In this document: positions 36,984-60,460 of the stretch, piece by piece | Layout: the number at the start of each line of letters is the position of its first letter | How positions within the stretch are numbered: position 1 is the stretch's first letter | Source: Poseidonia sp. | Lineage (GTDB): Archaea; Thermoplasmatota; Poseidoniia; Poseidoniales; Poseidoniaceae | NCBI GenBank assembly: GCA_023254355.1 | Contig: JALRLR010000001.1 | Coordinates: 2,100 to 66,099, forward strand | Direction of reading: 5' to 3' | DNA: 64,000 bases | Translations under genes and position numbers: made by a program | Notes under the pieces: model-generated | Seen by the model: the letters and a program-made list of their open reading frames with translations, nothing else | Database searches by the model: none | What the model was told of the DNA's origin: nothing

Positions 36984-39900
36984 ATGAAGCATTATCCTCG
37001 CATCCAACCCATGCGCTGGTCAATTCGTGCATGGGTGGTTGTTCTTGCAACCACCTTTGCCTCAACTTCCGCCCGTGCATCCACCGTCTCGGCCAGCACG
37101 GGGGTCACCGTTGATTTGGTCGCTCCATTGGGCATCGCTTTGGTCATCGCCGTCATGATTCGTCGTTGGTTCATCCCTCAACAACTCAAAAATTTGCAAG
37201 TTGCGTTTGAAATTGATGACGATTTGTACGAGGTGCACCGAATCACACGAACGCTCAGAGATTCACGACGTTTGCTCAAAGAAGGTCGAACCGGATTCGG
37301 TGTGTTGCTTTACATGATGGGTCTGACCGGGGTCCTCATCATCATCGCTGAGTTGTTGTTCAATGCCGATGTCTTTTCCAGCATCAACCTCTACATTGTT
37401 GGGGTGCTGATCGGTATCCCTGTTTTTATCTCGCCATGGGAATCGTTGAGCAGCCTTCTCTCGAGCAAAAAGCGTGAAACGAAGACGTCCATCGGAGCCG
37501 ATCTTCTCCGCCGCCTGACCACCTTGGCGTTGTTGTTGGTCGCTACCGGCCTTGTTTTGGCGTACGGGATGCAAGTTGAAGGCAGTTTAACACCAACTTG
37601 GATGGCGTTTGGTCTCTTAGCCTTCATGGCTCCTACCATTTTCGCCTATGGTCGAATCATGGGTGCTTCTTGGAACATGCTTCTCATCAGCAAGTGGCGC
37701 ACCACTCGTGGTCGGAAAAATCCGATTGACCCTGAAAAGAACGGCTTCATCGGCCGTTTGTTTTCCTTCGTCTTGGTCCTGTTCCTCTTGACGATGCCCG
37801 TCACGGCCCTCAACGGAATTTTGACCGTGTTGTACGTGATGCTCAATTCGCCTCCCAATTCCGAAGAAATTCTCAATTTTGGTGGCATCATTGGCTACAC
37901 CATCTACTTGAACATTGATTTGATCGCTGAAATCCTTTTTCAACTTGAATTCATCAAATCCTTGCCAGAAATTTTGTCGCTTTACCTCACCATGAACATC
38001 GCCATCGTTGGCCTTGCGTTTATCTTCGAATTGACACGCAACTTGATTCTCGGAGGTCAAACGTTCGGCGGCATGTTCGGCGTGACCCTTGACACGCCGC
38101 GGGAGATCCGAGCGGAAAAGTCTGCTCAGGCTCGCCAATTGACCTTTGCCTTTGCCGGATTTTCAGGATACACGGTTCTCCTTTTGATTCTGGTCTGTTA
38201 CAAGGAATTCGGAGATTTGATGCCGTTGACCGATTGGCTTGAGTTGCGTGGTTTTGATGAAGAGATGCGCCTCCTCACGACCTGGCTGTTTATTGCGGTC
38301 GGCCAAGCGGTCTTCTTGATCGCTTGGCTGCTCTCCATCAGTCGCTTTGGTACCCTTCGTAAGCTACGCTTTGACCTCAATCCGGACGAGCGAAGGGAGG
38401 GTGCCGTGAAACTCGCAGGTGGCGACCGCCTTCAGAACCTGGTAGAAACCGCGGCCTTCAACGAGGACATTGACCTGCTGATTCGGATTCAAACTCATGA
38501 TTTCCCTGGAGATCAAGCGCTGATCCGTCAGGAACAATCGCGCGCCTCCATGTGGGAGAAAGCCCTGAGAGGATTGTGGCCGGAGGCCATTGAAGAGAGC
38601 CGGAAATTGTTGGCACAGACCGGTGGTGACAACGATGAGGCACGCATGATCATTGCAACAGGTTACATCGCCCTACGTCGTTTGGATGCAGCGCGTGAGG
38701 CCTTGCACGGCCTCCAGCAACCCGAAGGATATGACGAGCCCGAGATTTTGTCGTTCATTTGCGAGTGGATGGATCCCTGGCACGGATCCGTGACTGAAGA
38801 CGACCTCTGGGATTGGGAAAACAATTCGGTCATTGACCATCTCCAAATGCTGCAAAACATGATGCGTTATTGGAGTCCACAGCCAAAGGACATGATGGTT
38901 CACAACGATCGCATTTCTCAAATTGGTCAGTTGACGATGGTAGCGCTTCTTCGAGCCCAACGACTTTACGACGAAGCCCTTGAACTCTCGCTGTCACTCG
39001 TCCGGGGCGATCCAACGGGTGTTCGGCCTCGAATTGCGACCGCCCTCTGCTTGCTAGATACTGGACAATGGTTTGATGCCAAAACCGTGGTCGATGAGCT
39101 CATCAAGAGCGATGGCAAGGACCCGAGAGTGATGGCGCTCGGTGTCATCTTTGGATACGGAAAGAAAGGAAACGAGCACATGGAAGTGTCCTTGCTCGTT
39201 GACGACGCCAAAACAACCCGTCACTGGATGGACGCCGCTCCGGTCAACGCCTATGCTGCGCTGCTCCAGAAAGGGGGTCTTGACGAGGCCCTCAACGCCA
39301 ACGTGATGGTGGCCGCCCATGAGGCCACACGCAGAGCGATGCCACCGCGTTTTTCTCCAAGTGTGCTCGCCAATGTCTTCCAATATCTGGTGTTAATTCC
39401 ACTTTGGGTGGTCATCGGCATCCTGACGTACCAAGAAATTGGTCCCGCTGAAGGCCTTTCTGCCTTGGGCGGTTTGCTGTTCATGCATTTTTCCTATGTG
39501 CGGTTCTCCAGGCAGCAGGAGCATCAAATCAAGCACCGCGATCAACGAGGTTTGATCAAGTATGCAAAGCGGATGCGCCGCTTCAAAGCCACGCCGCACA
39601 TGGACAACATCCCCATTGGAAATCATCTTCTGATGAGCGGGATTTTGGTCTCCGTGAATGGGGTTGTTCTGGACGTCGGGTTCCCTGCATGGTTATTCGA
39701 ACGCTTGCCGAAGGAACCGGAAAAGAAGGTGCGTGGCCGATTGAAGAGGCGGGCGGCCAACCTCGAGAAAGGGCGGACTCCGCGGGTCAGCCCCCTCGGC
39801 AAAGCCTGGTGGCTCAAGCGTCCGAAGGAGCACAACGAAGTTGGCCCTGTGCTGGAGCGTGAAATCGGCCCCGTTGCGTATCGTGGGAGGACGAACTACG

Positions 39901-40010
39901 TTCGCAAGAAGGAACCTCAATCTCTGAACGCTGCGGCTGAAGGGAAGGATGAAATCGTTCAGAACCGGTTCATCCCAAGAAACACCATTCGAAGCGAACG
40001 CCTTGGTTGA
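36984..40010 (+). CDS. Large hypothetical membrane protein (1008 aa): N-terminal polytopic domain, central TPR-like helical domain, additional TM segment and basic C-terminal tail
   Basis: About 480 aa of TM helices; a helical-repeat region (ARMIIATGYIALRRLDAAREAL...); a later TM LVLIPLWVVIGILTY; and the C-terminus RGRLKRRAANLEKGRTPR. No catalytic motif recognised. Confidence 0.45.
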   Translation: MKHYPRIQPMRWSIRAWVVVLATTFASTSARASTVSASTGVTVDLVAPLGIALVIAVMIRRWFIPQQLKNLQVAFEIDDDLYEVHRITRTLRDSRRLLKEGRTGFGVLLYMMGLTGVLIIIAELLFNADVFSSINLYIVGVLIGIPVFISPWESLSSLLSSKKRETKTSIGADLLRRLTTLALLLVATGLVLAYGMQVEGSLTPTWMAFGLLAFMAPTIFAYGRIMGASWNMLLISKWRTTRGRKNPIDPEKNGFIGRLFSFVLVLFLLTMPVTALNGILTVLYVMLNSPPNSEEILNFGGIIGYTIYLNIDLIAEILFQLEFIKSLPEILSLYLTMNIAIVGLAFIFELTRNLILGGQTFGGMFGVTLDTPREIRAEKSAQARQLTFAFAGFSGYTVLLLILVCYKEFGDLMPLTDWLELRGFDEEMRLLTTWLFIAVGQAVFLIAWLLSISRFGTLRKLRFDLNPDERREGAVKLAGGDRLQNLVETAAFNEDIDLLIRIQTHDFPGDQALIRQEQSRASMWEKALRGLWPEAIEESRKLLAQTGGDNDEARMIIATGYIALRRLDAAREALHGLQQPEGYDEPEILSFICEWMDPWHGSVTEDDLWDWENNSVIDHLQMLQNMMRYWSPQPKDMMVHNDRISQIGQLTMVALLRAQRLYDEALELSLSLVRGDPTGVRPRIATALCLLDTGQWFDAKTVVDELIKSDGKDPRVMALGVIFGYGKKGNEHMEVSLLVDDAKTTRHWMDAAPVNAYAALLQKGGLDEALNANVMVAAHEATRRAMPPRFSPSVLANVFQYLVLIPLWVVIGILTYQEIGPAEGLSALGGLLFMHFSYVRFSRQQEHQIKHRDQRGLIKYAKRMRRFKATPHMDNIPIGNHLLMSGILVSVNGVVLDVGFPAWLFERLPKEPEKKVRGRLKRRAANLEKGRTPRVSPLGKAWWLKRPKEHNEVGPVLEREIGPVAYRGRTNYVRKKEPQSLNAAAEGKDEIVQNRFIPRNTIRSERLG

Positions 40011-40050
40011 GCATCCACTTGCCCATGAGGTAGGGTTCAAAGACCGATTG

Positions 40051-41382
40051 ATGCAGTTGTGGTTCATGGACCAAGGACCCGGGGCGTGGACCCCAAGGGA
40101 AGAAAACAGGCAACTTGGATTGACCGTCCTTGAAGCGGTTCAATCAAGCGGACGTCTCTATCGAGACGGTCTTGGCATGATCGCTTCAGAGAACATCGTG
40201 TCGCCGTTGGTTCAGGACATCGTGGCCAGCGACTTGCACGGCCGATACGCCGAAGGCCTGCCTGGCAAACGCTATTACCAAGGATGCGATGATTTTGACA
40301 CCATTGAATCGCTGGGGATTTCGTTGGCAAAAGAAGTGTTTAACGCACCGTTTGCCAACATTCAATCAACGTCCGGTACGGTCTCCAACATCGGGGCACT
40401 CAAGGCATTGGCCAAACCCGGTGACCGCATTACGGCCGTCTCCACCGCCGATGGGGGTCACATCTCGCACGCACGCATGGGTGCCGTTGGCTTGCGAGAT
40501 TTGGACTTGACCACCTATCCGTGGGACGAAGCACGTATGGAGCCCGACATCGATGCAGCTTGCGCCATGATTCGTGAAGTGGAGCCGAAGGTGGCGTTGT
40601 TTGGTCAATCGGTGTTTTTGTTTCCCACGCCGCTCAAGGAGATGGCTGAGGCTGCGAAAGAAGTGGGGGCTGCCGTCATGTACGACGGTGCACATGTGTT
40701 GGGGCTGATCGCCGGTGGACAATTCCAAGACCCCCTCCGAGAAGGGGCCGATGTCATGACGGGCTCAAGTCACAAGACGTTCCCTGGTCCACAGGGGGGT
40801 TTTTTGCTGTCCTCATCTGGGGATGAAGCCTACCAGAAGCGCCTGAACACCGCGATGTTCCCCGGAGTATGTTCTTCATATCATTTGCACCACGTCGCTG
40901 GCAAGGTCATGGCCCTCGCCGAATTCAAGGAATATGGCGAAGCCTATGCTCGAGATACGGTGGCCAACGCTCAAGCCTTTGCTCAAGCCTTGGCCGCTGA
41001 AGGCTTCGATGTGCTTGCAGAGGGGCGAGGCTACACGGCCTCTCATCAAGTGTTGACGCGGCATGGAGCGTTGGACTCAGGAGCGGGGGCCAAGGCAGCC
41101 AAGCGTTTGGAACAGGCGGGTATCATCACCAACATGAACATGCTCCCCGGTGATACCAAAGCGATGCAACCATCGGGTCTTCGCTTGGGTGTACAGGAAC
41201 TCACCCGAGTGGGTTTTGATACTGACCTGATGAAAGACGTGGCGAACTTGTATGCAAGAGTGTTGCTTCATGAGGAGGACCCCGCTTCGGTAAAGGCCGA
41301 TGTTCGAGCGCTCAAAAACGAGCATCACGTCATCCGGTACTGTTTCAATGAAGAAGGTCGCTCCGGTTATCCAGTTGCATGA
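40051..41382 (+). CDS. glyA: Serine hydroxymethyltransferase
   Basis: MIASENIVSPLV, YYQGC, the TGSSHKTFPGPQGGF PLP-lysine motif. The track start 39949 overlaps the upstream gene; ATG 40051 or 40066 is likely. Confidence 0.85.
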   Translation: MQLWFMDQGPGAWTPREENRQLGLTVLEAVQSSGRLYRDGLGMIASENIVSPLVQDIVASDLHGRYAEGLPGKRYYQGCDDFDTIESLGISLAKEVFNAPFANIQSTSGTVSNIGALKALAKPGDRITAVSTADGGHISHARMGAVGLRDLDLTTYPWDEARMEPDIDAACAMIREVEPKVALFGQSVFLFPTPLKEMAEAAKEVGAAVMYDGAHVLGLIAGGQFQDPLREGADVMTGSSHKTFPGPQGGFLLSSSGDEAYQKRLNTAMFPGVCSSYHLHHVAGKVMALAEFKEYGEAYARDTVANAQAFAQALAAEGFDVLAEGRGYTASHQVLTRHGALDSGAGAKAAKRLEQAGIITNMNMLPGDTKAMQPSGLRLGVQELTRVGFDTDLMKDVANLYARVLLHEEDPASVKADVRALKNEHHVIRYCFNEEGRSGYPVA

Positions 41383-42414
41383 GTGTTGATCTTCATGGAG
41401 GAGTTCGAGAGCCGCTTTTCGGGGTTCTCGTTTGACGGGGAGGGGGTCATTCTTGACCCCAACGGACAACGATTGTGTTTGTTTGGAATGCTGGACTTTG
41501 AACGGTTTTGGTCCGCTTTTGATGCCTTCTCGCCAGCCCCTCTCGGACGAAAATTGCTCTACGCCGTCGCTGATGCTGAAGAATTCATTCTGTTGAACGG
41601 CGGGTTTGACACAGGGTCTTGGTTGAAGCGACGAAAACTCAAACGATCGCTGGCTGAGCGCAACCTTGGGATGGGTTGGGGTTTGATGGGGGGAGGCGCC
41701 GTACGGTTCCCTGCTCACGATGTGGTTTCGGTTGGTGTGGCGTTGGCCCAACACGAGCATGTGTCCAAACAACGCTGGAAAGTCAATTGGGCACAACAAA
41801 ACAGTGATTTCATCGCCTTGGAGTTCATCCCTCAGGACCGGGTTATTCCACCGGCGAGAGCCGTGCGGCCGCCTAACTGGGGGACGGTGGACATCGGTCC
41901 CACAAGCTCAACTTCCGTGCCCTTTGATGCCGATGTTCGAGACAACGGCTTCTTTTTTGGACAACAGCGGAGTTTTTTCCTTCCTGTCTCCGTGTTCCAC
42001 CGACTGTATGTGGAGTTGAACGGGCGTCCACTTAATGTCGAGGCAAGCGACGGTGCATCGATTGAAGTGAACCTCGATGAAAACGCCCTTCTGTTCCGAT
42101 GCGTGGTTCTTGCGGCAAAACGGATGTTTGAACAAGGCGAATTTCCGGTATTCGTCCTTCAAGCAGACGATTGGATGGGCGTGTTAGGGCAACGAATTTC
42201 CAAGTTCGGGCTGGGTGCCGTTGAGGTTCTCTCCTCGAGACTGGACGGTGATTTTTCAACCTCGTTTCGAATACATTCTCCGTTGCCGGGCATCACCACT
42301 GGACTGGTGTTTGCGATGTGGGAACGTTGCTTCGGCCAGCGTGGACACACAACGGTCATGATCGGCGACCATTCGGTGGAGGTGACGGTCGCAAAACCTG
42401 CGCTAGAATATTGA
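41383..42414 (+). CDS. Hypothetical protein (343 aa), no recognisable motif
   Basis: Intact ORF abutting the glyA stop; mixed alpha/beta composition. Confidence 0.4.
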   Translation: MLIFMEEFESRFSGFSFDGEGVILDPNGQRLCLFGMLDFERFWSAFDAFSPAPLGRKLLYAVADAEEFILLNGGFDTGSWLKRRKLKRSLAERNLGMGWGLMGGGAVRFPAHDVVSVGVALAQHEHVSKQRWKVNWAQQNSDFIALEFIPQDRVIPPARAVRPPNWGTVDIGPTSSTSVPFDADVRDNGFFFGQQRSFFLPVSVFHRLYVELNGRPLNVEASDGASIEVNLDENALLFRCVVLAAKRMFEQGEFPVFVLQADDWMGVLGQRISKFGLGAVEVLSSRLDGDFSTSFRIHSPLPGITTGLVFAMWERCFGQRGHTTVMIGDHSVEVTVAKPALEY

Positions 42415-42510
42415 CAAAAATCCTACCACTCCTCGCTTGTGTGTCATGAAAACCTGCCCATGGAAGGTCAAGGTTCATAACCGAATCAACGCCTCGTCGG
42501 GAATGCACAG

Positions 42511-43656
42511 ATGTGCGGGGAATGGAACATGAGCCTAAATCACAATCAAATGGCGTATGTAGCAATTGTTTCGACCTTGATTTTCGGATCTCTTTTCGTG
42601 GGTGTTTCCGGCTTCTTTCAAACCAGCGAAAACATCGGTGGTTTTGATAGCGCTGTGGAAGAAGACATTCGTGGTCAATCCGAGTTGATGGAAACCGCCA
42701 CCGATTCCGATGGCGATGGCTTGTCGGACAAACTCGAGGAAACCCAGTACGGTACGGATCCTGATGACCCTGACACCGATAATGACGGTTTAAGCGATGG
42801 CTGGGAAGTTCAACACGGGCTGAATCCGCTCGATAACGGAGAATCTGAGGATATCGAAGTTGACCCAACCCAAAGCGAAGATACCGAAGCCGAGGGTCTT
42901 GAAAACGAAACCGAGTCGTGGCCCGATCCCAGCCAAGGTCCCAACGGGGACCCTGACCGAGATGGATTGACCAATCAGGCAGAAGCCGAACTCGGCACGG
43001 ACCCACAACGCGCTGATACCGATAATGACGGACTCAACGACCGCTGGGAATCCCTCTACACCATGGGCGTTCAAACTCCCGGTGGCGAGGTGATTCTGTT
43101 CAATCCCCTCGACGGAAACTGGGATTGCTTGCTCCTTGACCAAGCCATGGTGGACGCCCTTGAAGTTCGTTTTAACGGCGAGAACGGCATGGCGGATTGG
43201 GATGACCTGGCTTCAAACGGACGTCATTCCTGCGACATGGTGCTTGACACCGATGACGACGGCCTTGCAAACTTTGAGGAGGAAGCGTTCGGAACCAACC
43301 CCACGGCGCGAGACTCCGACAACGACTTGATTGACGATATCGTTGAGGTCGCCAACGAAACCATCGCCCTTTACATGGGCATGGGCGAACAATGCAATGA
43401 AAAGTTGCTTGACCCTGTCCCCCGTGTTGGGCCTTTCTTTGGCGTTGAACGTAGCTGGTTCATGATGGACATGGACAACGATGGATTGCTCAATGGACCA
43501 TCGGACTGGGATACTGACGGTGACGGGATGCCTGATGGCTTTGAGTACTGTTATTCGATACCCGGCATGGCACCGAACGCCGCCTACGTGCTGAACCCTT
43601 CAAACGCCTCGGACGGCTACGGTGACTGGGACGAAGACGGCATGAACAACCTCTAG
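42511..43656 (+). CDS. Membrane-anchored protein with thrombospondin type-3-like Ca-binding repeats: N-terminal fragment ending at an in-frame TAG
   Basis: Signal anchor MAYVAIVSTLIFGSLFVGVSGFF. Repeats DSDGDGLSDKLEE, DTDNDGLSDGWE, DTDNDGLNDRWE, DTDDDGLANFEEE, DTDGDGMPDGFE. It ends ...GDWDEDGMNNL-TAG. It is in the same frame as the next ORF. Confidence 0.6.
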   Translation: MCGEWNMSLNHNQMAYVAIVSTLIFGSLFVGVSGFFQTSENIGGFDSAVEEDIRGQSELMETATDSDGDGLSDKLEETQYGTDPDDPDTDNDGLSDGWEVQHGLNPLDNGESEDIEVDPTQSEDTEAEGLENETESWPDPSQGPNGDPDRDGLTNQAEAELGTDPQRADTDNDGLNDRWESLYTMGVQTPGGEVILFNPLDGNWDCLLLDQAMVDALEVRFNGENGMADWDDLASNGRHSCDMVLDTDDDGLANFEEEAFGTNPTARDSDNDLIDDIVEVANETIALYMGMGEQCNEKLLDPVPRVGPFFGVERSWFMMDMDNDGLLNGPSDWDTDGDGMPDGFEYCYSIPGMAPNAAYVLNPSNASDGYGDWDEDGMNNL

Positions 43657-43731
43657 GAGTACCAGGTTGCCCAAATTTTTGGCGAGGGTAACTTCACCTC
43701 ACCTTGGCTGGAAGACACCGATCGAGATGAC

Positions 43732-45609
43732 ATGCCCGATCAGTGGGAGGCCGCCAACGGACTCCATCCTCGCTCTGCCTTGAATCGAGACGATGACCCC
43801 GACTTTGATGGGTGGGATCTTGACGGAGACGGTGATGTGATGTACGATACCTTGGAGAACACGGCCGTCGTACACACCGTTGATGTCACGCTCGGACAAC
43901 AGGTTGAAACCAATCAGCAAGTGGCTTCGGCTCGTATCACGCTTGCCGGTGGAAACCAACAGGTCATTCCTCTGAGGTCTCCCGTCGATGGCTACGTGTA
44001 CGAACTGAACGTCGTGGTTGGTCAATCAATCGATTCTCGCTTGTTCAGTTGGATGAACATCGTTGAGGAAGAAGAGCGATTCACCAACGTGATGGAGTAC
44101 AAAGCCAACGACCGAGACCAAGACGGTATCTTGGACGGACGTAGCACGGATCCCCTCAACCCAGATACGGACAACGACGGACTGATCGACGGTATTGAAG
44201 TGATGGGTTGGGAAATCTTGGTTGTCAACCGAGGTGTTCAACCCACCTGGGTGACCTCCGACCCCGGACTCTACGATACGGACGCTGACGGTCTTTCGGA
44301 TTTTGAAGAGTTCTCCTCAACCTGCAACCTCGGTGGGTCAAACGCCTCCAATCCCGATACGGACTCTGATGGTTTGACTGACCTCGAGGAAGCCGGTGAT
44401 AATTTCATGTGGGAAGGTGAGGCTTACTCAACTTCTCCGTGTATGTTTGACACCGATAACGATGGGCTAGAAGACGGTGAAGAAGTCGTTGCGGGAGAAG
44501 ACAATTTCCTCACCCATGCCAACAACTCCGACACGGACGATGACGGTTTGGTCGACGGCCAAGAAGTTCTCTTTGTGCCACGTCCTTTCCAAAACCCCAC
44601 CAACCCCTTGTTGAACGACACGGATGCTGACGGCATGCTCGACGGATGGGAAATGCAGGTGAAATCAGCCGAAGACAACACAAATTCACACAGCCTTTGG
44701 GTGGCCACTTCAACTTGGCTTCGCCCCGGGTGTGAAGAAACCCAATCCAGTTCATGTACCATGCAACCCGGTGGTTATGTTTGGCAGAACTGGCTCGGTG
44801 GCTTTGCATTGGAGCCCAAGTTTGCCGTGAGTGAAATGAACCTCACCGGTTTCCAGATGCCGACCAATCCCCTTTGCGACGGTTGCAACGGGCGCTGGGC
44901 TTTGGACCCCTCCCTGGGTTCATTGAAGGACGATACCTACGATGTCGACAACGACACGCTCGCTAACGGGATGGAGGCACCTGACCGCTGGAACACCAAC
45001 CCTGTTGACGACGATACGGACGGCGATTTGCTCCCCGACGGCTGGGAGGTTTCGTACTCGCAACTGGCCTTTGAAAACGGCTTGGCAACCAACGAAACCG
45101 TTGGTGTTTACGGCGCACGTGGTGTGATGGACCCGTCCATGCCCGACAGTGATTTGGACGGCATTGACGATGGTTTTGAGGATCCCGACGCCGACGGTTT
45201 GAATCGAACCGGGCTCATCAAGCGTTACTGTCCCGGTTACAACGACACCACGAACTCCGAGTGCAACATCGACCCCGATTCCCCCGATGGGAAACGCTTC
45301 TACGACAATCTTGAGAACTACACCAACTACGAAGAGATGCAAAACGGTACCAATCCAATCTCGAACGACACGGACGGCGATGATTGGAACGACGGTCCAG
45401 AAGTGTACTATCAAGACCATGATGGCGACGGTATGGCCACCGGTTGGGAATATCACTTCCAGTTTGATCCGTATGACGGAGCTGACCGCATGGTCGACAC
45501 CGACGGTGATGGCCACGTCAACTTCTGTGAGTACAAGTGGGACACCAACCCAAGAAACCCCGTCTCTTACCCAGGTCAAGGTGAATTGTGCGATCCATTT
45601 AGCGACTGA
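43732..45609 (+). CDS. Thrombospondin type-3-like repeat protein: C-terminal continuation of the preceding ORF (same frame; the true coding region resumes right after the TAG at 43657)
   Basis: The 75 nt upstream of the track's first Met translate without a stop as EYQVAQIFGEGNFTSPWLEDTDRDD and continue the repeat (DTDRDDMPDQWE). More repeats follow: DTDNDGLIDGIE, DTDADGLSDFEE, DTDSDGLTDLEE, DTDNDGLEDGEE, DTDDDGLVDGQE, DTDADGMLDGWE, DTDGDLLPDGWE, DTDGDDWNDGPE. Confidence 0.6.
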   Translation: MPDQWEAANGLHPRSALNRDDDPDFDGWDLDGDGDVMYDTLENTAVVHTVDVTLGQQVETNQQVASARITLAGGNQQVIPLRSPVDGYVYELNVVVGQSIDSRLFSWMNIVEEEERFTNVMEYKANDRDQDGILDGRSTDPLNPDTDNDGLIDGIEVMGWEILVVNRGVQPTWVTSDPGLYDTDADGLSDFEEFSSTCNLGGSNASNPDTDSDGLTDLEEAGDNFMWEGEAYSTSPCMFDTDNDGLEDGEEVVAGEDNFLTHANNSDTDDDGLVDGQEVLFVPRPFQNPTNPLLNDTDADGMLDGWEMQVKSAEDNTNSHSLWVATSTWLRPGCEETQSSSCTMQPGGYVWQNWLGGFALEPKFAVSEMNLTGFQMPTNPLCDGCNGRWALDPSLGSLKDDTYDVDNDTLANGMEAPDRWNTNPVDDDTDGDLLPDGWEVSYSQLAFENGLATNETVGVYGARGVMDPSMPDSDLDGIDDGFEDPDADGLNRTGLIKRYCPGYNDTTNSECNIDPDSPDGKRFYDNLENYTNYEEMQNGTNPISNDTDGDDWNDGPEVYYQDHDGDGMATGWEYHFQFDPYDGADRMVDTDGDGHVNFCEYKWDTNPRNPVSYPGQGELCDPFSD

Positions 45610-45624
45610 GGTCCTTGATTTTCC

Positions 45625-47184
45625 ATGATATCACCTTCTCGCAATGGTCGGGTGTTCATCGCTCTGGCGTTGATGTGTTTTCTTGTGGGAACAGGCACCC
45701 CCGGAGCATCTGCTTCCCATGCGCCTTCTGAATCGTCACCGATGCAGGTATCGGTGGACCAACCATCCGGCGTGTTGTTCGCGAATAGCATCAATTTGAG
45801 TGGTTCGTCAACTCAACCCTTACGAAACACCAGTTGGACCATCGTGAACATCAGTGGGACAACACCCATCACGGTTCTCAGTGGACCGTACTTGACTTCG
45901 GTGGTTCCGTTAGCCGACGGTGTGTATCGTTGGACATTGATCGTTGATTTACAAGGTGTTGATTGCACCTGTTATGTGGAATTGTCAACCATCGATGAGC
46001 AGCATCGTCCCTTTTCGGTCCACCATGTGGTGTACCTCGGGGATCAACATCAACGACCGGTGCTGGGGGTTGACAACCCGCAATCGTACACCACCCCTCA
46101 TCTCAGCGGTGAACCCTTCATGTTACAACCCTCCACGACGGTGGAATTGCAGTTGATACAACCCGCTTTGGAAGCCACCAACATCTCCGTCTTTGGGGAA
46201 CTATGCGAAGCGCCGTTTGAGGTCTGTTTAGGCAATCCATTCTCGGTGAATATTCCCCATCGCCTGAACAATCAATCCTTGTTTCTGGATCTCAACGCCA
46301 ACCAATGGGCCATTGACGAGGGGATTTGGCGTCTTACGGTTCATGTCACCGATGATTTGCTTCGGTCATCTCACCGGATTTCGCTTCCGTTGGTTTATGA
46401 CATTACGCCGCCAGTGGCCAGCCTCAACGTCCCGATTTTGGCGCAGGAGGGTGAGGTTTTCCTCATTTTTGCAGACGTTGACGATGGCTATGAAGGCTCG
46501 ATTTCGACGTTGACATGGTTTGTGGTGGATGAAGAAGGTGGAACAAGGTCGCCCACAGCAATGGAGCGGTTGAGTGAACATCAACTCAGTCTGAACTTCA
46601 CTCGGGCGGGATCGTACATCCTCGAACTCACCGTTCGTGACCATGCTGGCAACACGGTGAAGGTTTCCGAACAAGTGTTGGTCGAGAATCTCAAACCCGT
46701 CGCTCGAATATCAGTGGACGGACTCACGGTGGCGCCTTCCACCACCTTAAAACTCGGACCCGGTGCCAACTGGTCAATAAGTGGAACCATGAGTCTCGAC
46801 AACGAACCCATTGAGTATCTCTGGGTCATTGACAACGCGACGTCCATCCGGGGAGTGCCTTCGTTGACCCAAACGAATTTTTCCGGCACAGGGCTTCATA
46901 CAGTTGAGTTGATTGTATTTGATGACGATGGTGCCACCGATTCTCAATTCATTGAGGTGATGATTCTTGAGCCCCTTCAAGACGAGGTGGCCGCCACTTC
47001 ACCCATCGCCATGACGGTGCTTGGCTTGCTTATTCTCTCCGTCCTCGTTGCTCTACCGTTCATCAAGCGCCAACGTGTTACTGAAAGTGATTTACCGAGG
47101 TGGCAACCCAACGCCAAGGCGGAAGTTGTGTTTACATCCTCCCCGATAGGCTTTGATGCAACGGTTGAAGAAGATGAACCCTGA
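45625..47184 (+). CDS. Secreted, C-terminally membrane-anchored surface protein with PKD/Ig-like domains
   Basis: Signal peptide MISPSRNGRVFIALALMCFLVGTGTPGASA. PKD-like segments (...SYILELTVRDHAGNT..., ...LHTVELIVFDDDGATD...). C-terminal TM IAMTVLGLLILSVLVALPFIKRQR plus an acidic tail. Confidence 0.6.
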   Translation: MISPSRNGRVFIALALMCFLVGTGTPGASASHAPSESSPMQVSVDQPSGVLFANSINLSGSSTQPLRNTSWTIVNISGTTPITVLSGPYLTSVVPLADGVYRWTLIVDLQGVDCTCYVELSTIDEQHRPFSVHHVVYLGDQHQRPVLGVDNPQSYTTPHLSGEPFMLQPSTTVELQLIQPALEATNISVFGELCEAPFEVCLGNPFSVNIPHRLNNQSLFLDLNANQWAIDEGIWRLTVHVTDDLLRSSHRISLPLVYDITPPVASLNVPILAQEGEVFLIFADVDDGYEGSISTLTWFVVDEEGGTRSPTAMERLSEHQLSLNFTRAGSYILELTVRDHAGNTVKVSEQVLVENLKPVARISVDGLTVAPSTTLKLGPGANWSISGTMSLDNEPIEYLWVIDNATSIRGVPSLTQTNFSGTGLHTVELIVFDDDGATDSQFIEVMILEPLQDEVAATSPIAMTVLGLLILSVLVALPFIKRQRVTESDLPRWQPNAKAEVVFTSSPIGFDATVEEDEP

Positions 47185-47193
47185 GGATGAATC

Positions 47194-48567
47194 ATGTTCG
47201 CCGAAGCCCTCGCTAAGTTGCCTCCGCAACCAGCGCCAACCGCCATCAGCGAATTTAGAGAGCGTCAGGAACGCTTGACATCGCAATTTCGTAACGACGA
47301 TGTCTTCATTCTGACCTCGCCCCCCTTTGCTGTTCATTCCAACGACGTCGAATATCGATACCGTACGTCAAGCGATCTCCTCTACCTCACAGGCTGGAGT
47401 GAACCTGAGTCCGTTTTTGTCCTCCGTTACCACCAAGGCTCGTGGGTTTCAACGTTGTTTGTACAACCTCAAGACACGCTGAAAGAAATTTGGGAAGGTC
47501 GTCGCCCCGGAACAAAAGGAGCTCTTGCTGATTATGCCGTCGATGAGGCATACAACAACGACGAATTGTCTGTTCGCTTGTCCGAGTGGTTAAACGACAC
47601 CAAGCGCGTCTTCTTGCGGGGTGGTATGAACCCTGAAGTTGACGCCATGGTGGAACACGCCATTCGGAAACGAGACCGAGCGCGCCAACATTTTGGCAGC
47701 GGACCCGTGTCCCTTGAGGACCCATCCGGATTACTGGCCGAGTTACGACTGCGTAAATCCGCTTCAGAAATTGAGCAAATGGTGTATGCGAGCAAGGTCG
47801 CCAGTCTTGCGCATGAATTGGCCATGCGTCACAGTCGAGAAGGCGTCACTGAATATCAACTCCAATCCATCATCGAGGCCTTCTTTTCCTATGCTGGGGC
47901 ATCAGGTTGGTCCTACCCCTCCATTGTTGGTTGTGGTGAAAACGCGACCATTCTTCACTACACCACCAACCAAGACACGTGCGAGATGGATGAGGTCGTG
48001 CTCATCGATGCCGGAGCAGAATATCGGGGCTACGCCAGCGACATCACACGCTCATGGCCAATTTCGGGGACCTTTTCGGAGGCGCAGCGGGAAATTTACG
48101 AACTTGTCCTTCGCGCTCAACTGGTCGCCATTGATGCCTGCCAAGTCGGAGCGCCGTACACTGCGCCGCATGAGGCAGCCCGCCGTGTGCTTGCGGAAGG
48201 GCTGATCGAACTCGGTGTGATCCAACAGTCAATTGATGAAGCCTTGGACATGGACAAAGGAGAATTGCGACACTGGTACATGCACAACACGAGTCATTGG
48301 ATTGGTCTTGACGTACATGACGCAGGCGTCTACAAACCCGGTGGTTCACCACGGCTTCTTGAGCCCGGAATGTGCCTCACGATTGAGCCCGGTCTGTATT
48401 TCGGCGCTTGGAGACCGGATGTTGAATGCCCTGAACGCTATGCAAACATCGGCATTCGAATCGAAGACGATGTGCTGATCAGCACTCAAGGGCCGGTCGT
48501 CCTCACCGAAGATTGCCCGAAGTCGATTGAAGACCTCGAAAGCATTGTCGGCGTATCCCTCGGCTGA
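47194..48567 (+). CDS. pepP: Xaa-Pro aminopeptidase (M24B, PepP-like)
   Basis: N-terminal creatinase-like domain, then the pita-bread catalytic domain with HWIGLDVHD and metal ligands (D, D, H, E, E); 457 aa. Confidence 0.8.
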   Translation: MFAEALAKLPPQPAPTAISEFRERQERLTSQFRNDDVFILTSPPFAVHSNDVEYRYRTSSDLLYLTGWSEPESVFVLRYHQGSWVSTLFVQPQDTLKEIWEGRRPGTKGALADYAVDEAYNNDELSVRLSEWLNDTKRVFLRGGMNPEVDAMVEHAIRKRDRARQHFGSGPVSLEDPSGLLAELRLRKSASEIEQMVYASKVASLAHELAMRHSREGVTEYQLQSIIEAFFSYAGASGWSYPSIVGCGENATILHYTTNQDTCEMDEVVLIDAGAEYRGYASDITRSWPISGTFSEAQREIYELVLRAQLVAIDACQVGAPYTAPHEAARRVLAEGLIELGVIQQSIDEALDMDKGELRHWYMHNTSHWIGLDVHDAGVYKPGGSPRLLEPGMCLTIEPGLYFGAWRPDVECPERYANIGIRIEDDVLISTQGPVVLTEDCPKSIEDLESIVGVSLG

Positions 48568-48576
48568 GTTGAGTCC

Positions 48577-49761
48577 ATGTCCTGGCAGTCCATCCTCGAA
48601 CGTCAAGCGTCTTGGTCAAAGGCCACAGCTGCGTCCCTCCGCCTGACGGTGGATGAAGCGGTGGTGCTCTACGATGAGGCACCTCTCCATGCATTGATGC
48701 AGGCGGCCCATCAGCGACGAATGCAGATGATTCCTGGTGGTTACGTGACCTATTTGGTCGATCGGAACATCAATTACACCAACGTTTGCACCATCAACTG
48801 CCAGTTCTGTTCCTTTTACCGGCCCCCTGGTCATGACGAGACCTACACTCAGACCTACGAAGAAATTTCCAATCGAGTCCGTGAATTGGAGGCCATCGGT
48901 GGTTCTCGAATTCTCATGCAAGGTGGGGTGAACCCCGCCTTGCCCATCACGTGGTACCTTGATCTGCTTCGATTCCTTCGTCACCATCACCCTTCCATTG
49001 CGCTCGACTGCTTCAGTCCCATTGAAATTGAAGGGGTTGCCGAAGTGTGTGGACTAACGACGCTTGAAGTGCTCTCGCGATTCAAGGAGGCGGGCATGCA
49101 CGGATTGCCGGGAGGCGGCGCTGAGATGCTGGTGGAGTCGGTGAGGAAGGATGTCTCTCCCAAGAAGGGGTCGCCTACCAATTGGCTCAAGGTCATGGAG
49201 GAAGCCCAATCCTTGGGCTTAACCACGAGTGCCACCAACGTCATCGGTTTTGGTGAAGGCAACGGAGATCGCATCGAACACATGAACCAACTTCGCATGT
49301 TGCAAGACCGTTCCCTCAATAACCACGGCCACGGCTTCACATCGTTTATTGCGTGGCCCGTTCAATTGGAAGTCAACTCTTTTGGACGCCGAAATCGAGG
49401 CCAAAACAAGCATGAACTGGGGGCCGGTTCATCCGAATACCTCCGTCATGTGGCGGTGGCTCGGCTGTTTTTTGACAACATTGACCACATCCAAGCCTCC
49501 TGGCCCACGATGGGGCTTCCCATCGCTCAAATGGCGCTTTTGGGCGGTGCTGATGATGCAGGTTCCACCATGATGGAAGAAAACGTTGTGTCCGCTTCCG
49601 GCACCACGAAAGTTGAAGCCCAAGAAGCCGAACTTCAATTGGCCATTTCCAGAGCAGGCTTCGTGCCAAAGCGGCGAAACAGTGACTATGAACTCCTTGA
49701 GACAGAACTCAACACGGCATCCGTTTCTCCGCCGGTTGCGCCAACGCCTATGCAGTCGTAG
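48577..49761 (+). CDS. Radical SAM enzyme of the MqnC/MqnE/CofH family (futalosine-pathway menaquinone biosynthesis is most likely)
   Basis: CTINCQFCSF (CxxxCxxC) near the N-terminus and a TIM-barrel-length body of about 390 aa. The family members cannot be told apart by eye. Confidence 0.55.
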   Translation: MSWQSILERQASWSKATAASLRLTVDEAVVLYDEAPLHALMQAAHQRRMQMIPGGYVTYLVDRNINYTNVCTINCQFCSFYRPPGHDETYTQTYEEISNRVRELEAIGGSRILMQGGVNPALPITWYLDLLRFLRHHHPSIALDCFSPIEIEGVAEVCGLTTLEVLSRFKEAGMHGLPGGGAEMLVESVRKDVSPKKGSPTNWLKVMEEAQSLGLTTSATNVIGFGEGNGDRIEHMNQLRMLQDRSLNNHGHGFTSFIAWPVQLEVNSFGRRNRGQNKHELGAGSSEYLRHVAVARLFFDNIDHIQASWPTMGLPIAQMALLGGADDAGSTMMEENVVSASGTTKVEAQEAELQLAISRAGFVPKRRNSDYELLETELNTASVSPPVAPTPMQS

Positions 49762-52700
49762 GGCCGTAGAAGACCACCCAAATCACGGCTCGAATGTTCC
49801 GTCCACCGTTGCCGATTCCGTCAGAGGGGACGTATTCTGCTCCGTTGTAATAGCCTCTATACACCAAGTGGTTGTTGGTCGTGTTATCGACCCATTCGGT
49901 GATATCGTATGTCCACTGTTTCACGTCTTGACCAGCGCACCAACCGGCACGGCCAAATGGCCATGACCCGAACTGATTGGCCACGACTCCGTTGTTCACC
50001 TCGTTTTCACAACCCTCGCTGCTGTACACGATGGGATGCCATTCGTAAGTTTGGTGACTTCCCATGGTGTAGTAGTGTTGGTGGTCACAAAATTCTGCAC
50101 AATTGGCCGTGTCTTGATTGAATCCGTGGCCGGTGATGGTGGCTACAATTTCAACACGAGTCGTGCCAGCGGGAACGGTAAAGTTGTGTTGACGATTGTA
50201 CTTTGACTCGTTGTTGTACGTCCCGTCAAATTGACCGCCGCTAAAGGCGTAGGTGGCGTTTATCGACCGCTCGCCGCTTCCCCAGTTGCTGAAGAGGAAG
50301 GTGACGGTGAGGTCCCCTTTGTTGGCACCTGAATACTTGAATCGCCGCTCTTCGCCATCGTTGAGCATGAACAAATACGGTGTGATGTCCGTAAGCCACA
50401 TGCCCTCCCGTCCATAGGTGGTGATCCAGCGGACCATTTCGGTGTTGCAGACCGAGCTGTTCGAAGCATCGCACACATAGAGGTAAGCGAGGTAGTCCCA
50501 TTCGTGACAACCACCGTACGTTCCATCCGATTTTTGATACCGGTTGGTACGATCGTAGCACGCATGTTCGTGGTAAACCTCGAGGGTATCGTACGAACTC
50601 AGATTTTCAGGGAGTTGGAAGGTGGCGTTCGTGAATGATGAATGACCTCCCCCCCACCCGCCAGTGTGGCGTTGGAAATCCATGACGGAGACGGCGTGAA
50701 CGCCCGGGTCTGAACTCCGAATTTTGGTTGGGAATTCGGCCACCCACTGATTGGTTTCATACGACAGGTGGTACGGGTCGTTTGATTGGCTTGTCCATGC
50801 GTAGAGGGAACCGGTTTCTCGAGCCAGTTGGAAACGATCGATGCCCATGTATAACGGATTGTTAAAGGAAGCAATCATGGAACCAAGTCCTCCACCGATG
50901 TTGCTTGCATCCATGTCAATGTAGTGAATTCGGTCGTCCCAATCCGCTTCTTCGCTTGCGGTTAAACCGGCTAAGACGGCGTTTCGCTGTTGAACCACAT
51001 CATTGTGATAGGTGGTGTCAAACGACCCGTAGAAGAGATGCGTGTTTTCAGGAAGGTTACGTATGAATTTACCTGGATTTTGTCCCCAGGTCGCTCCATT
51101 GCTGCTTCCAGCCGAGTTGGTGTATTTGAACATGAAAAAGTAGACATCATGGCCCGTCCAACGGTCTTTGAAATTGAACGAGCCGTTCAGCGTAGGGACG
51201 GAAAATTGGGGTACGATTTGCATCGGGCCGTTCAACGATGAAGCGTCGGTCCAGTTCACCGGTAGTTGAATGACGGCACAACCAACTTGATCCACGGTCC
51301 ACCGTTCGGGTGAATTTGCACAAGCGTCAACGTTGGCAAACACGCCGTCTCCATCGATGTCCGCACACCCCACGGCGTTGACCACCAAGCCCGAAGGTGT
51401 GCCTTCGCACTGGTCAATAAAGTCGTTTACGCCGTCTTGGTCGGTGTCTCGTTCCACGGCTGCGCAACCGTGTTCATTGACGTCCAAACTGCCCAACGGG
51501 GTTTGTGGGCACAGGTCCAAGGTGGAACCGGTGGCGTTGACATCGTTAACACCGTCATTGTCGTCATCATCGTCTTCCGTTGCGTCTTGGCATCCATCGT
51601 TGTCCCAATCGTTGGCGGTCGTCGAAGACCATCCAGCCACCCCTTTTGGACACCAATCAACGGTGTCGTTGTGATCGTCGTTGTCGTCGTTGTCATCCTC
51701 ATCCAAATCGGAGCAACCGTCGTTGTCCCAATCACTGTACCGGTTTGAAAACCAACCTTTGCGGCCGACGGGGCACGAATCCTCCACGTCTTCCACACCG
51801 TCGTTGTCATCATCGGTGTCTTCATCCGCATCGTGGCAACCATCGTAGTCGTAATCGGCGCTTGGTGTGCTCACCCAACCGTAGGAGTTTGGGCATCCGT
51901 CGTGAAGGTCAATGATGCCGTCATTGTCGTCGTCGTCGTCTTCGTCGTTGTCGCGACAGCCGTCTTGATCACCGTCCGTCGCGGGCGTTGATTGCCACCC
52001 ATCGTCGGCCCCGAAGCCGTTGGGGCAACGGTCGTTGGCGTTTTGGACACCATCGCCATCTTCGTCATCTCCCGCTCCTTCAATGACCACGGTGGTGGTT
52101 GCGACATCGTTGGCCACGGTGAAGCGACCGCAGGTCGCCGTCGTGGTGATCGTGTGAGACGACGTTGCCTCCGTAAAGTCAACAAGAACTTTCCATGAAC
52201 CGCGGTCGTCAAGGGTTAAGCCGCCCACCGTTCCGTCGGTAATTTCGTATTGAACGGTGCATGAATCGATGTTCGCGTGGTCTACTCGCCCCTCAAACCA
52301 CACCACATTTGGTTCTTCGAGGACCAATCGTGCGGCGGTGGTCAGCACCGGCGCCGCCTCAATGGGCGCTTGAACGGTGAGGCTGAGCACGAGCGGTTGG
52401 AACTCGGGTACCATCTCGGTGCTACCAGTGTTCGAAAATCGAATGGAGACGATGTGTTCGCCAACCGTATCCGGTACAAAGGAAAGCTGGTAGCCGTTGG
52501 ATTGCTCAATCCATTCAATGTTCATCAGGGGCGTAAAGGAGGGATTCAGAACCGAAGGCTCTGCGATGTAAGTACCCTCTCCTTCTTGATTCACGTTCAG
52601 GATGTAAACGGCTTCCTCTCCGAGAACCATCGTACCCGGAGCATTCACCCACGTTGCTTCGAGGCTGTAGGTCTCTAGGACAGGCTCCTCGATGTCGGGG

Positions 52701-52780
52701 GCGGAATCCGTCATCCCTAAACATCCCGATACGACCATCAAGGCGACAAAACAGAGAGCTGTCCAGCGTTGTGGCTGCAT
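49748..52780 (-). CDS. Large secreted lipoprotein-like surface protein: Ig-like N-terminal domains, central thrombospondin type-3 repeats, and an aromatic/Gly/Asn-rich C-terminal globular domain
   Basis: Start trimmed to ATG 52780 (MQPQRWTALCFVALMVVSGCLG, lipobox-like). TSP3 repeats with Cys: DGDQDGCRDNDED...DGCPNSYG, DYDGCHDADED...DSCPVGRKG, DTDQDGVNDFIDQCEGTPSG, DIDGDGVFANVDACANSPE. The C-terminal 450 aa have about eight Cys and many W/Y/G/N. The track start 53005 is upstream low-complexity sequence. Confidence 0.65.
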   Translation of the reverse strand: MQPQRWTALCFVALMVVSGCLGMTDSAPDIEEPVLETYSLEATWVNAPGTMVLGEEAVYILNVNQEGEGTYIAEPSVLNPSFTPLMNIEWIEQSNGYQLSFVPDTVGEHIVSIRFSNTGSTEMVPEFQPLVLSLTVQAPIEAAPVLTTAARLVLEEPNVVWFEGRVDHANIDSCTVQYEITDGTVGGLTLDDRGSWKVLVDFTEATSSHTITTTATCGRFTVANDVATTTVVIEGAGDDEDGDGVQNANDRCPNGFGADDGWQSTPATDGDQDGCRDNDEDDDDDNDGIIDLHDGCPNSYGWVSTPSADYDYDGCHDADEDTDDDNDGVEDVEDSCPVGRKGWFSNRYSDWDNDGCSDLDEDDNDDNDDHNDTVDWCPKGVAGWSSTTANDWDNDGCQDATEDDDDDNDGVNDVNATGSTLDLCPQTPLGSLDVNEHGCAAVERDTDQDGVNDFIDQCEGTPSGLVVNAVGCADIDGDGVFANVDACANSPERWTVDQVGCAVIQLPVNWTDASSLNGPMQIVPQFSVPTLNGSFNFKDRWTGHDVYFFMFKYTNSAGSSNGATWGQNPGKFIRNLPENTHLFYGSFDTTYHNDVVQQRNAVLAGLTASEEADWDDRIHYIDMDASNIGGGLGSMIASFNNPLYMGIDRFQLARETGSLYAWTSQSNDPYHLSYETNQWVAEFPTKIRSSDPGVHAVSVMDFQRHTGGWGGGHSSFTNATFQLPENLSSYDTLEVYHEHACYDRTNRYQKSDGTYGGCHEWDYLAYLYVCDASNSSVCNTEMVRWITTYGREGMWLTDITPYLFMLNDGEERRFKYSGANKGDLTVTFLFSNWGSGERSINATYAFSGGQFDGTYNNESKYNRQHNFTVPAGTTRVEIVATITGHGFNQDTANCAEFCDHQHYYTMGSHQTYEWHPIVYSSEGCENEVNNGVVANQFGSWPFGRAGWCAGQDVKQWTYDITEWVDNTTNNHLVYRGYYNGAEYVPSDGIGNGGRNIRAVIWVVFYGPTTA

Positions 52781-52817
52781 GGGTAAACCTCCTATTCGTT
52801 TGCCTTCAATGTGTTGT

Positions 52818-53963
52818 TCAAGAGATGTCCGATTCGGAACGACCGTCGAAGACCGGTAAGGATTCAACCACCACCTTGGCCGGTGAGTGGGCGACCCGGA
52901 GGGGTTCGACCCAGAGCAAAGGACCTCCTTTGCTACGGTCGATACGAAGGATGCATTCCCAATGAATGCGTACCAAGTCTGAATGAACGCTGCCTGGCCA
53001 CTCACCTTCGGGGCAGGCCAACGTCATGGCCTCGCCTTCCGTCCACCGTTTAAGTTCCCCCATGGCCATGATTCGCATCGGTCGAAGGTACAAACCGCCC
53101 TTGACCTCTTGGAGTTCCATCGGTGCGTCCTCCCCTCCGGCCGTTCCGTCGTCCAAGCCGGAAATCCAATGATGCGGGAGTTCCGTGGAGAGTCCCGGGG
53201 GTGGTTGGCGACTGACCTCCCTTTCAAGGACCTGCAACAACGTTTCACGAGCAGGGGGCAGAACACCAACTCGCCAAAACACATCCACATGGTTCCAAGT
53301 GGAGGGGCGGTTGTCAAGTTGGAGCGTGATTTCCAACGGCTTGTTGGCGATGGGATTCCCTTGTATCTCCAGCTTGGGCCGTGTTGGATGAGTGGCCAAA
53401 AACCGGTTCTGTCGTCGTAATTCGACCAAATTGGCGAGCACGCGAATGAACAGGGGTGCAAAAATGAGGGGAACCACAAAGACAGCGAGCGCTGGGTAGT
53501 CAAGCAAACCCCAACGAACCGTTTCCAAACCGTACACGGGAAGGCCAAAAAACAGCAAGACAGGAGAGATGAAGAGATAGAATAAGGCGGCCAAAAGCAC
53601 GATGACCACGCCGTTGATGAATTGACGCAGCACGTTATGGACGGGGTTGGGGACCAAGTACCAACCCCTTCGTTGGCGGTATACGGTGTCCACAAAATCC
53701 TCTTCTTCCAGAAAAGCCTGGTCCCCTTCATGCTCCAATCGTTGGCCGTCGAACCAATATTCACGTTGTATCAGCCATGAATCCTCAGTACCCAATCGGA
53801 ACGATGGAGCGAGGTTCATGAGATGGTTCATCGCCTCGTCTTGAGTTTCAAACTGACCCTTCGAAAACGTTCGCTTGCCAATGGGCAGGTGTTCTGGATT
53901 CCACCTTGACGATTCGAAAGGTGGGTAGCGGACGCTTTGGATCTCATCGAGGGACGGCATCAC
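52818..53963 (-). CDS. Hypothetical membrane protein
   Basis: Central hydrophobic helices (VVIVLLAALFYLFISPVLLFFGLPVYGL; ALAVFVVPLIFAPLFI) flanked by soluble domains; co-directional with GGR upstream and the surface lipoprotein downstream. Confidence 0.4.
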   Translation of the reverse strand: MMPSLDEIQSVRYPPFESSRWNPEHLPIGKRTFSKGQFETQDEAMNHLMNLAPSFRLGTEDSWLIQREYWFDGQRLEHEGDQAFLEEEDFVDTVYRQRRGWYLVPNPVHNVLRQFINGVVIVLLAALFYLFISPVLLFFGLPVYGLETVRWGLLDYPALAVFVVPLIFAPLFIRVLANLVELRRQNRFLATHPTRPKLEIQGNPIANKPLEITLQLDNRPSTWNHVDVFWRVGVLPPARETLLQVLEREVSRQPPPGLSTELPHHWISGLDDGTAGGEDAPMELQEVKGGLYLRPMRIMAMGELKRWTEGEAMTLACPEGEWPGSVHSDLVRIHWECILRIDRSKGGPLLWVEPLRVAHSPAKVVVESLPVFDGRSESDIS

Positions 53964-53969
53964 AAAGCC

Positions 53970-55184
53970 TCAGGTCAAAAGCAATCGCACACCCGCTTTG
54001 AGAGCGAGCGGGCGGAAGGCCGGAACTTGACGAAGCAAGGCCATTCCTAGCGGTACAGGCTTTTCGATGTCGCCAATTTCGTTGATGATCTCCAAGGTGT
54101 TGGGGTGTGCAAACGCATTGAAATGCTTGTCAAGGGTTTCGTCCGAGCAGTCGCTTACGAGGAGGTTTCTCAGGGTTCTGGCTCGGTCTTGGTCCCGCTT
54201 CATGGCTTCCCACGGTTTCTTCGTGATGCGTTTCAACTGGACCTCATCCAATTTGTCGGATTGGATGGCCTCAGTCAAGGGTTCAACGATGCATTGTATT
54301 TGATGGAATCCAGGCCCGATGCCGCCACCGGTGGTGGGTTTTGCCATTCCAGCAGCATCACCCAGCAGCATGACTCGAGATTTGACCGCCTTTTTGACCA
54401 TGCCCGAGGGAACGGGGCCGCAATATCGGGCGACCTCCTGCACGTTGGCAAAACGGTCTCGCCAAAGAGGATGGTCCACCAGTGCCTGATAGCAGGATTC
54501 GATGCTTCGACCATTCAATCGCTCGGCGGTTGACCAGAGACCAATGCGATGTGAACCGAAGCCTGAGGGAATGACCCAAGCAAAAAACCCCGGCGCGATT
54601 TCGGAGCCACTGTACATCTCCAACCAACGGTCGCGTCCTTGATAACCAACCACCTCGGTTTGGAATCCAATCATCAATTCCTTTGGGCGTCCCATGCGAA
54701 AGGTTCGGCGTGTCCAACTGTGAGCGCCGTCGGCCCCAATCAGAAGTTTACAGCGAAGTTTCACGTTCTCACCCGAACGGTTGAGAAGGAGCTCGACCCC
54801 CGCATCATCGGTTTTGGCTTCCTTGGGCGTGGTGGCCAGCCAAAGGTCCGAACCACGTTCCATTGCTTGTTGGACGACGAATTGATCAAACCGCTTTCGG
54901 CAAACAACGTATGTACGAAGAACCCCTTCCGTGCCAACGGGTACCAAGGTTCCACTTGGACCGTGAATCAAGGCGCCGTCCACTTCTTCAAGGACCGTGT
55001 GATGAGCAGCCACGGCGTCCATGGCCGAGGGCGTCACGAGGCCGGCACATTGGAACGGACGACCAATTTCATCGTGTTCCTCAATCATCAGCACCCGTAG
55101 GCCTCGTTCAGCGAGCAACCAAGCCGCTCGTCCGCCAACAGGGCCCGCACCAACAACGACCACGTCGTAGTCGTAGGGCTCCAT
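53970..55184 (-). CDS. Geranylgeranyl reductase family FAD-dependent oxidoreductase (archaeal lipid saturation)
   Basis: YDVVVVGAGPVGGRAAWLLAERG FAD dinucleotide fold, CAGLV, GDAAG...P motif; 404 aa. Confidence 0.8.
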   Translation of the reverse strand: MEPYDYDVVVVGAGPVGGRAAWLLAERGLRVLMIEEHDEIGRPFQCAGLVTPSAMDAVAAHHTVLEEVDGALIHGPSGTLVPVGTEGVLRTYVVCRKRFDQFVVQQAMERGSDLWLATTPKEAKTDDAGVELLLNRSGENVKLRCKLLIGADGAHSWTRRTFRMGRPKELMIGFQTEVVGYQGRDRWLEMYSGSEIAPGFFAWVIPSGFGSHRIGLWSTAERLNGRSIESCYQALVDHPLWRDRFANVQEVARYCGPVPSGMVKKAVKSRVMLLGDAAGMAKPTTGGGIGPGFHQIQCIVEPLTEAIQSDKLDEVQLKRITKKPWEAMKRDQDRARTLRNLLVSDCSDETLDKHFNAFAHPNTLEIINEIGDIEKPVPLGMALLRQVPAFRPLALKAGVRLLLT

Positions 55185-55234
55185 GGCAGAGGGTCAGGAG
55201 GGTTGTGTTTCAACCTTCCTTCGGTGGAGGTGCA

Positions 55235-60138: not shown

Positions 60139-60160
60139 GGCTGAAGTGGACCGTTGAACG

Positions 60161-60457
60161 GGATAGGTGGGGAGCTCGGCGTACCCTGTACCACAAAGCG
60201 TCGTTATGGTGGACTGAACGCCTTGGGGCGGCGAAAGCGGTCTCGTGGTTCCCGTAGGCGGACGTTGATGTCTCGCCCCCACATGACTCGGGTGTCATGA
60301 ACCGTCTCCGGAAGGAAACGGGAATTGGATAACCGGGGGACTAGGTCAGGCCGGGAACGGAGCAGCCCTACCTGGGGCCATGGGTGCTGTGGGGATCCGG
60401 GATGGAGGAAGCTTGCGGATTTGGCTGCGCGAAGCGCACGTCCACCCTCGGCCCTCC
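60161..60457 (+). ncRNA. ffs: Signal recognition particle RNA (archaeal 7S RNA), about 295 nt; ends approximate
   Basis: The helix-8 (domain IV) core AGGUCAGGCCGGGAACGGAGCAGCC at 60342..60366 closely matches the universal SRP motif (E. coli 4.5S GGUCAGGUCCGGAAGGAAGCAGCC). The 5' GGUGGGGAG (60167..60175) pairs with the 3' CUCCCACC (60448..60455). Internal hairpins: CCAC...GGUGG, GGCGAAAGC. All overlapping track ORFs are short and mutually overlapping. Confidence 0.6.
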
Positions 60458-60460
60458 CAC

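Follow-up and report, generated by a model that had tools for sequence, protein, structure and literature searches.

The 64,000-nucleotide stretch analyzed here (the window; contig JALRLR010000001.1 of Poseidonia sp., positions 2,100 to 66,099 of the forward strand) contains a large gene encoding TSP3 repeats, which is divided by a single in-frame TAG codon. Translation of the window places this TAG at 43654-43656, where it is the sole internal stop of the frame 42511..45609 (+). It terminates a first open reading frame (ORF) at 42511..43656, and a second ORF at 43732..45609 shares that frame. The 75 nucleotides that separate the two are stop-free and translate as EYQVAQIFGEGNFTSPWLEDTDRDD. 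Across the junction, the residues ...DWDEDGMNNL are followed by the stop and then by EYQVAQIFGEGNFTSPWLEDTDRDDMPDQWE..., with which the repeat-rich protein resumes; written with X for the TAG codon, the residue context is ...DEDGMNNL-X-EYQVAQIFGEGN... The frame beyond the TAG remains open for 650 sense codons. An open downstream frame of this length, combined with a single continuous ORF in every orthologue, is far beyond chance. An earlier, sequence-only reading of this DNA had proposed one gene cut by one TAG into two same-frame ORFs with a stop-free interval of 75 nucleotides, and each of these elements was verified in translation.

The same reading described a protein of approximately 1030 residues. 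A single large TSP3-repeat gene is indeed present, but its length requires correction, as most orthologue calls (1026 residues) start at the ATG at 42529 (MSLNHNQ...). The complete interrupted gene accordingly spans 42529..45609 (+), comprising 1026 codons and a terminal TGA, and full-length similarity and synteny assign it to a conserved group of orthologous TSP3-repeat surface proteins of Poseidoniaceae, ~1020-1080 residues in length. The N-terminal fragment (P0121; 42529..43656, +), a public record of 375 residues, carries a hydrophobic anchor together with 8 DxDxDGxxD-type motifs and terminates at the TAG. Its hydrophobic segment, MAYVAIVSTLIFGSLFVGVSGFF in translation (42550..42618, +), is nearly invariant among orthologues; it is likely a signal or membrane anchor, and is present on the upstream fragment only. 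The downstream part (43657..45609, +) comprises 650 codons and the TGA, encodes 11 TSP3-type motifs, a β domain and a Cys-rich region, and its protein is identical to that of an intact allele, P0138, described below. The ATG called as the start of the second ORF (43732..43734, +; P0124, 625 residues) encodes a Met inside an MPD(Q/G)WE motif. This Met is internal in 120/120 aligned orthologues, and the ATG is therefore not a genuine start. By exact-sequence look-up, the 375- and 625-residue fragments are both public NCBI gene products of one contig of 72,571 bp. The TAG is therefore present in the deposited sequence, and the possibility that it is an artefact of the scan pipeline was ruled out by the occurrence of both fragments in an NCBI-derived protein collection.

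When the conceptually fused protein was used as a query, we recovered more than 120 full-length, single-ORF orthologues of ~1020-1080 residues, with 61-91% identity and 99-100% query coverage. These homologues come from Candidatus Poseidonia and Poseidoniaceae (Marine Group II archaea). The Pfam assignment was made on P0125, an intact sister allele 99.6% identical to the window's conceptual product, which matches TSP3_bac (PF18884) in 4 stretches with 61.3 bits against a cut-off of 25. The conceptual product of the window itself features 19 DxDxD[GDNE]xx[DN] motifs, 8 before the TAG and 11 after it. A PF18884 match, full-length collinearity and a shared gene neighbourhood place the gene within the TSP3_bac-repeat group of Poseidoniaceae (P0001-P0120). 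The uninterrupted frame of ~1020-1080 codons that characterizes this group is, however, absent from the window copy, which has the TAG at codon 376. In Rinke et al. (2018; PMC6461757), thrombospondin-type genes are described as widespread in Ca. Poseidoniales and are linked to cell adhesion. The gene studied here resembles these Ca. Poseidoniales TSP3_bac repeat proteins in its repeats and in its conserved Poseidoniaceae synteny, and differs from them in a private premature stop after codon 375. From its sequence, the product is a putative large, calcium-binding TSP3-repeat surface protein of the adhesion type.

The residue expected at codon 376 is unambiguous. When 120 orthologues are aligned, the position of the TAG holds Glu in 119 and Asp in 1, and these orthologues are single genes rather than pairs of genes with a spacer, as predicted if the window copy is an interrupted version of a single ancestral gene. 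At the nucleotide level, 86 related loci carry GAA (56) or GAG (30) at this codon and none carries a stop; with later loci added, all 95 of the 95 that contain the junction have GAA or GAG. Moreover, among loci whose gene is not cut by the end of the locus, 92 of 94 others have a frame that stays open over at least 1000 codons. The two exceptions are instructive. The first, L025 (CAXHCG010000101.1), starts at locus positions 1-40 with a Nextera transposase adapter, TCGTCGGCAGCGTCAGATGTGTATAAGAGACAG, joined to mid-gene at the contig end; this is untrimmed sequence in a public metagenome-assembled genome (MAG). The second, L016 (JAYQOB010000005.1, contig_7005_pilon), belongs to a long-read, Pilon-polished Poseidoniales MAG and has its own in-frame TGA elsewhere, at residue 883 (approximately locus position 11515), where it reads DGIDD-stop-LEDPD and its orthologues read DGIDDGFEDPD.

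Comparison with the closest available contigs resolves the change to one base. Two contigs from ENA, L094 and L095, align to the window over 21 kb at 99.6-99.7% identity with 0 indels, and carry G at 43654. Both encode the intact 1026-residue protein P0138, recorded from 3 contigs, and 1025 of its 1026 residues equal those of the window's conceptual product, the sole difference being the stop in place of Glu376. The other nucleotide differences in the gene number 9-10 per contig and are all synonymous. A sister strain encoding P0125, represented by 2 NCBI MAGs and 5 Logan assemblies, has 97-98% DNA identity and 0 indels, and also reads CTC GAG GAG TAC. Contigs near-identical to the window derive from samples ERZ27267703, ERZ27267699, ERZ27267698, SRR14560396, SRR26337549, SRR26337550, SRR26337560, SRR26337570 and SRR26337571. 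Among the GTDB representatives, none is identical to the window. In total, 9 same-species contigs have CTC GAG GAG TAC where the window has CTC TAG GAG TAC, which bears out the GAG (Glu) ancestral codon that had been deduced from the repeat consensus. The lesion in the TAG codon (43654..43656, +) is a single-base substitution: base 43654 carries a G>T change, private to the window in the orthologue and contig comparisons, which converts GAG for Glu376 to TAG.

The change is also very young. Relative to the sister strain, the gene has ~57 synonymous and ~5 nonsynonymous differences, giving a ratio of nonsynonymous to synonymous substitution rates (dN/dS) of 0.014 before the TAG and 0.024 after it; the latter value implies no relaxation of constraint in the 650 codons downstream. 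The window-private branch within the gene has only two changes: the nonsense substitution and, 290 nucleotides downstream at 43944, a synonymous one. An old or decayed pseudogene is rejected on the two dN/dS values, the lack of any other amino-acid change relative to P0138 and the lack of indels. Judged by these comparisons, the stop would be either extremely young or not real. The earlier description of a gene becoming a pseudogene holds to the extent that this is at most a nascent pseudogene, with a single lesion and no relaxed constraint. In these respects it matches the segregating nonsense alleles and nascent pseudogenes of natural prokaryotic populations, which likewise feature a single lesion, an intact frame, no relaxed constraint, and intact alleles in the population. 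Separately, the 3' end of the TSP3 gene (45471-45597) shows 9 synonymous differences in 127 nucleotides between the window and L094, with 0 in the preceding 1.5 kb, and here L095 matches the window. This cluster points to recombination over a short tract between co-occurring strains.

On balance, we favor the view that the TAG arose by a genuine and very recent nonsense substitution in the captured strain or sub-population, which the sequence comparisons make probable though by no means certain. The competing explanation, which we regard as possible but rather doubtful, is an assembly or consensus error: the organism would have GAG, the T would be a sequencing, polishing, amplification or consensus artefact, and the two ORFs would be an artefact of annotation. 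The distribution of private changes bears on this choice. When the interval 38577-55609 was polarised with four relatives, 15 window-private substitutions were identified, 10 of them in the 339-residue gene upstream and 5 elsewhere; these five comprise 4 synonymous third-position changes and the nonsense change itself. Random errors are mostly nonsynonymous, so that the 4/4 synonymous changes outside the variable tract argue against an error-laden consensus. Likewise, the window shows 0 indels over 27 kb relative to its relatives, and an error of the short-read type would require an identical miscall in most of the covering reads. Inspection of ORF pairs and of gene lengths relative to relatives revealed no other split genes in the window. 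The remaining same-frame ORF pairs are distinct, complete genes, e.g. PfkB/archease and D-aminoacyl-tRNA deacylase/proline dehydrogenase. With no indels, no other split genes and mostly synonymous private changes, there is therefore no general error signature, and a generally error-prone assembly was rejected on these grounds. This absence modestly favors a real variant.

Several observations nevertheless weigh against a genuine allele and are those expected of a consensus error. The T allele, with its exact truncated product, is recorded from one contig only, and all other assemblies of the population and species, amounting to at least 10 contigs, carry G at 43654. Two pattern scans of Joint Genome Institute (JGI) metagenomes found neither allele, and gave no independent confirmation of T. 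Apart from the stop, the conceptual product and the intact P0138 are 100% identical. Moreover, the isolated TGA of L016 in the same gene shows that one-off stops arise in MAGs, and may be artefacts. G>T is also the class of change typical of oxidative-damage artefacts. The sequence-only reading had ranked a recent nonsense mutation or a sequencing error above recoding of the codon, and this ranking is upheld by the GAG of same-population contigs and by the use of TAG as an ordinary terminator nearby.

The latter point concerns a third explanation, in which UAG is either leaky or read as an amino acid (pyrrolysine or another), and a full-length protein is produced. The 650 downstream codons, open and without relaxed constraint, are compatible with such recoding, and a very young mutation accounts for them equally well. 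In its favor may also be counted that Methanomassiliicoccales, a lineage near Marine Group II, encode pyrrolysine (PMC4153887). Against it, a stop occupies the column in 0/120 proteins and 0/95 loci, including the 99.7%-identical contigs, and the ancestral residue is an ordinary invariant Glu of a repeat rather than part of a catalytic site. TAG is, furthermore, a normal terminator here. The tetranucleotide TAGG, with the same +4 G, ends the MMPL gene (35226), CofH (49761) and an N-glycanase-like gene (49748, minus strand), with lengths that match the calls in relatives; that three neighbouring conserved genes end in this way at conserved lengths indicates that TAG is not avoided as a terminator. 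TAG ends 3 of the 16 other genes listed in the 32-60 kb interval, and among the long open frames of the window it ends 6/56, with TGA the dominant stop (44/56). No tRNA(CUA)/pylT or other relevant Rfam family was found in the 64-kb window. The RNAs that were detected are an archaeal signal recognition particle (SRP) RNA (60155-60463, +), tRNA-Ser(GGA) (13219-13305, +) and tRNA-Thr(GGT) (14953-15027, +). A search for a stimulatory RNA structure was also negative, as the 120 nucleotides from the TAG onward fold no better than shuffled sequences (z = -0.83). The likeness to pyrrolysine UAG recoding in Methanosarcinales and Methanomassiliicoccales is thus confined to an in-frame UAG within an otherwise open archaeal gene; here, in contrast, the UAG is conserved in no orthologue, TAG is freely used as a terminator, and no stimulatory structure accompanies it. 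Recoding or readthrough, which we consider highly improbable, was rejected on the unconserved stop, the use of TAG as a normal terminator in the same context, the lack of pylT in the window and the unremarkable RNA. Nothing at this locus points to a reassigned stop codon in Marine Group II archaea.

An equally improbable explanation is that of a phase-variable surface gene, which the sequence-only reading had offered as an option, or of a functional split in which both halves are expressed separately: surface proteins are often subject to on/off switching and gene callers annotated two ORFs, but the lesion is a base substitution and no homopolymer, short tandem repeat, meaningful inverted repeat or invertible segment was found at the TAG site, so that slipped-strand or inversion switching does not apply and phase variation is rejected, as the site lacks a repeat tract. 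From the sequence, two separately functional genes are similarly unlikely: the ATG of the second ORF codes for a Met internal to a motif in all aligned orthologues, the 625-residue ORF has no N-terminal anchor of its own, and no relative shows the split.

If the nonsense substitution is genuine, UAG would stop translation as usual after residue 375, leaving an anchored stub with 8 repeats. The C-terminal 650 residues, with their 11 repeats, barrel-sandwich β domain and Cys-rich region, would be lost, and the change would constitute a loss-of-function or truncation allele of an otherwise intact core gene. A more speculative proposal, which we consider unlikely, is that the knockout allele segregates at appreciable frequency, with loss of the exposed C-terminal 650 residues being advantageous under some conditions. 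Were this true, cells lacking this region might evade a virus or grazer for which the protein serves as a receptor, or might pass from a particle-attached to a free-living state. If the T allele proved frequent, it would illustrate, on a small scale, how a conserved surface protein of an abundant uncultured marine archaeon can be polymorphic for loss of function. The case as it stands amounts to an unremarkable nonsense substitution, private to the window, or to a one-base assembly error, in an already known kind of gene. For annotation, the 375- and 625-residue ORFs should not be listed as two proteins but recorded as parts of a single interrupted gene, or else marked as a possible sequencing error.

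The β domain downstream of the TAG lies between TSP3 repeats at 43774..44106 (+; residues ~416-526 of 1026), and was delineated by structure modeling and Foldseek as a candidate barrel-sandwich-hybrid (biotinyl/lipoyl-like) fold. Modeled in isolation, it has a predicted local distance difference test score (pLDDT) of 88.9 and a predicted template modeling score (pTM) of 0.78. Foldseek comparison with the PDB returned BesA, BCCP and lipoyl domains, with a best E-value of 5.8e-4, query-based template modeling (TM) scores of ~0.55 and target-based scores reaching 0.84. The modeled domain thus resembles the barrel-sandwich-hybrid domains of biotinyl/lipoyl proteins and membrane-fusion proteins. 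Its hairpin has the sequence LAGGNQQ and lacks a Lys at the presumed cofactor site, a position that we assigned ourselves. A Pfam scan did not detect the domain at 43774-44106, and a sequence search of the PDB gave no match. The AlphaFold model of the entire 650-residue C-terminal part has a pLDDT of 47 and is too poor for use. The available part of PMC6461757 does not describe a barrel-sandwich-hybrid domain in this family.

The neighbourhood of the gene is conserved. Relatives keep the order MMPL, EVE, aminotransferase, TPR, SHMT, a 339-residue hypothetical protein, the TSP3 gene, a PKD protein, M24 aminopeptidase, CofH and the N-glycanase-like protein, among others. Immediately before the TSP3 gene lies the gene for the 339-residue hypothetical protein (41395..42414), which has no Pfam match. 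Its 10 private substitutions, 6 of them nonsynonymous, fall within 725 bp (41517-42241), and the 16 kb around this tract have only 5; the segment looks like a divergent or recombinant tract. Among the related loci, L028 (NZEQ01000045.1), is deposited as 'Verrucomicrobiales bacterium isolate ARS100' but contains the Poseidonia gene at 92% identity, and is probably an archaeal contig mis-binned in a bacterial MAG.

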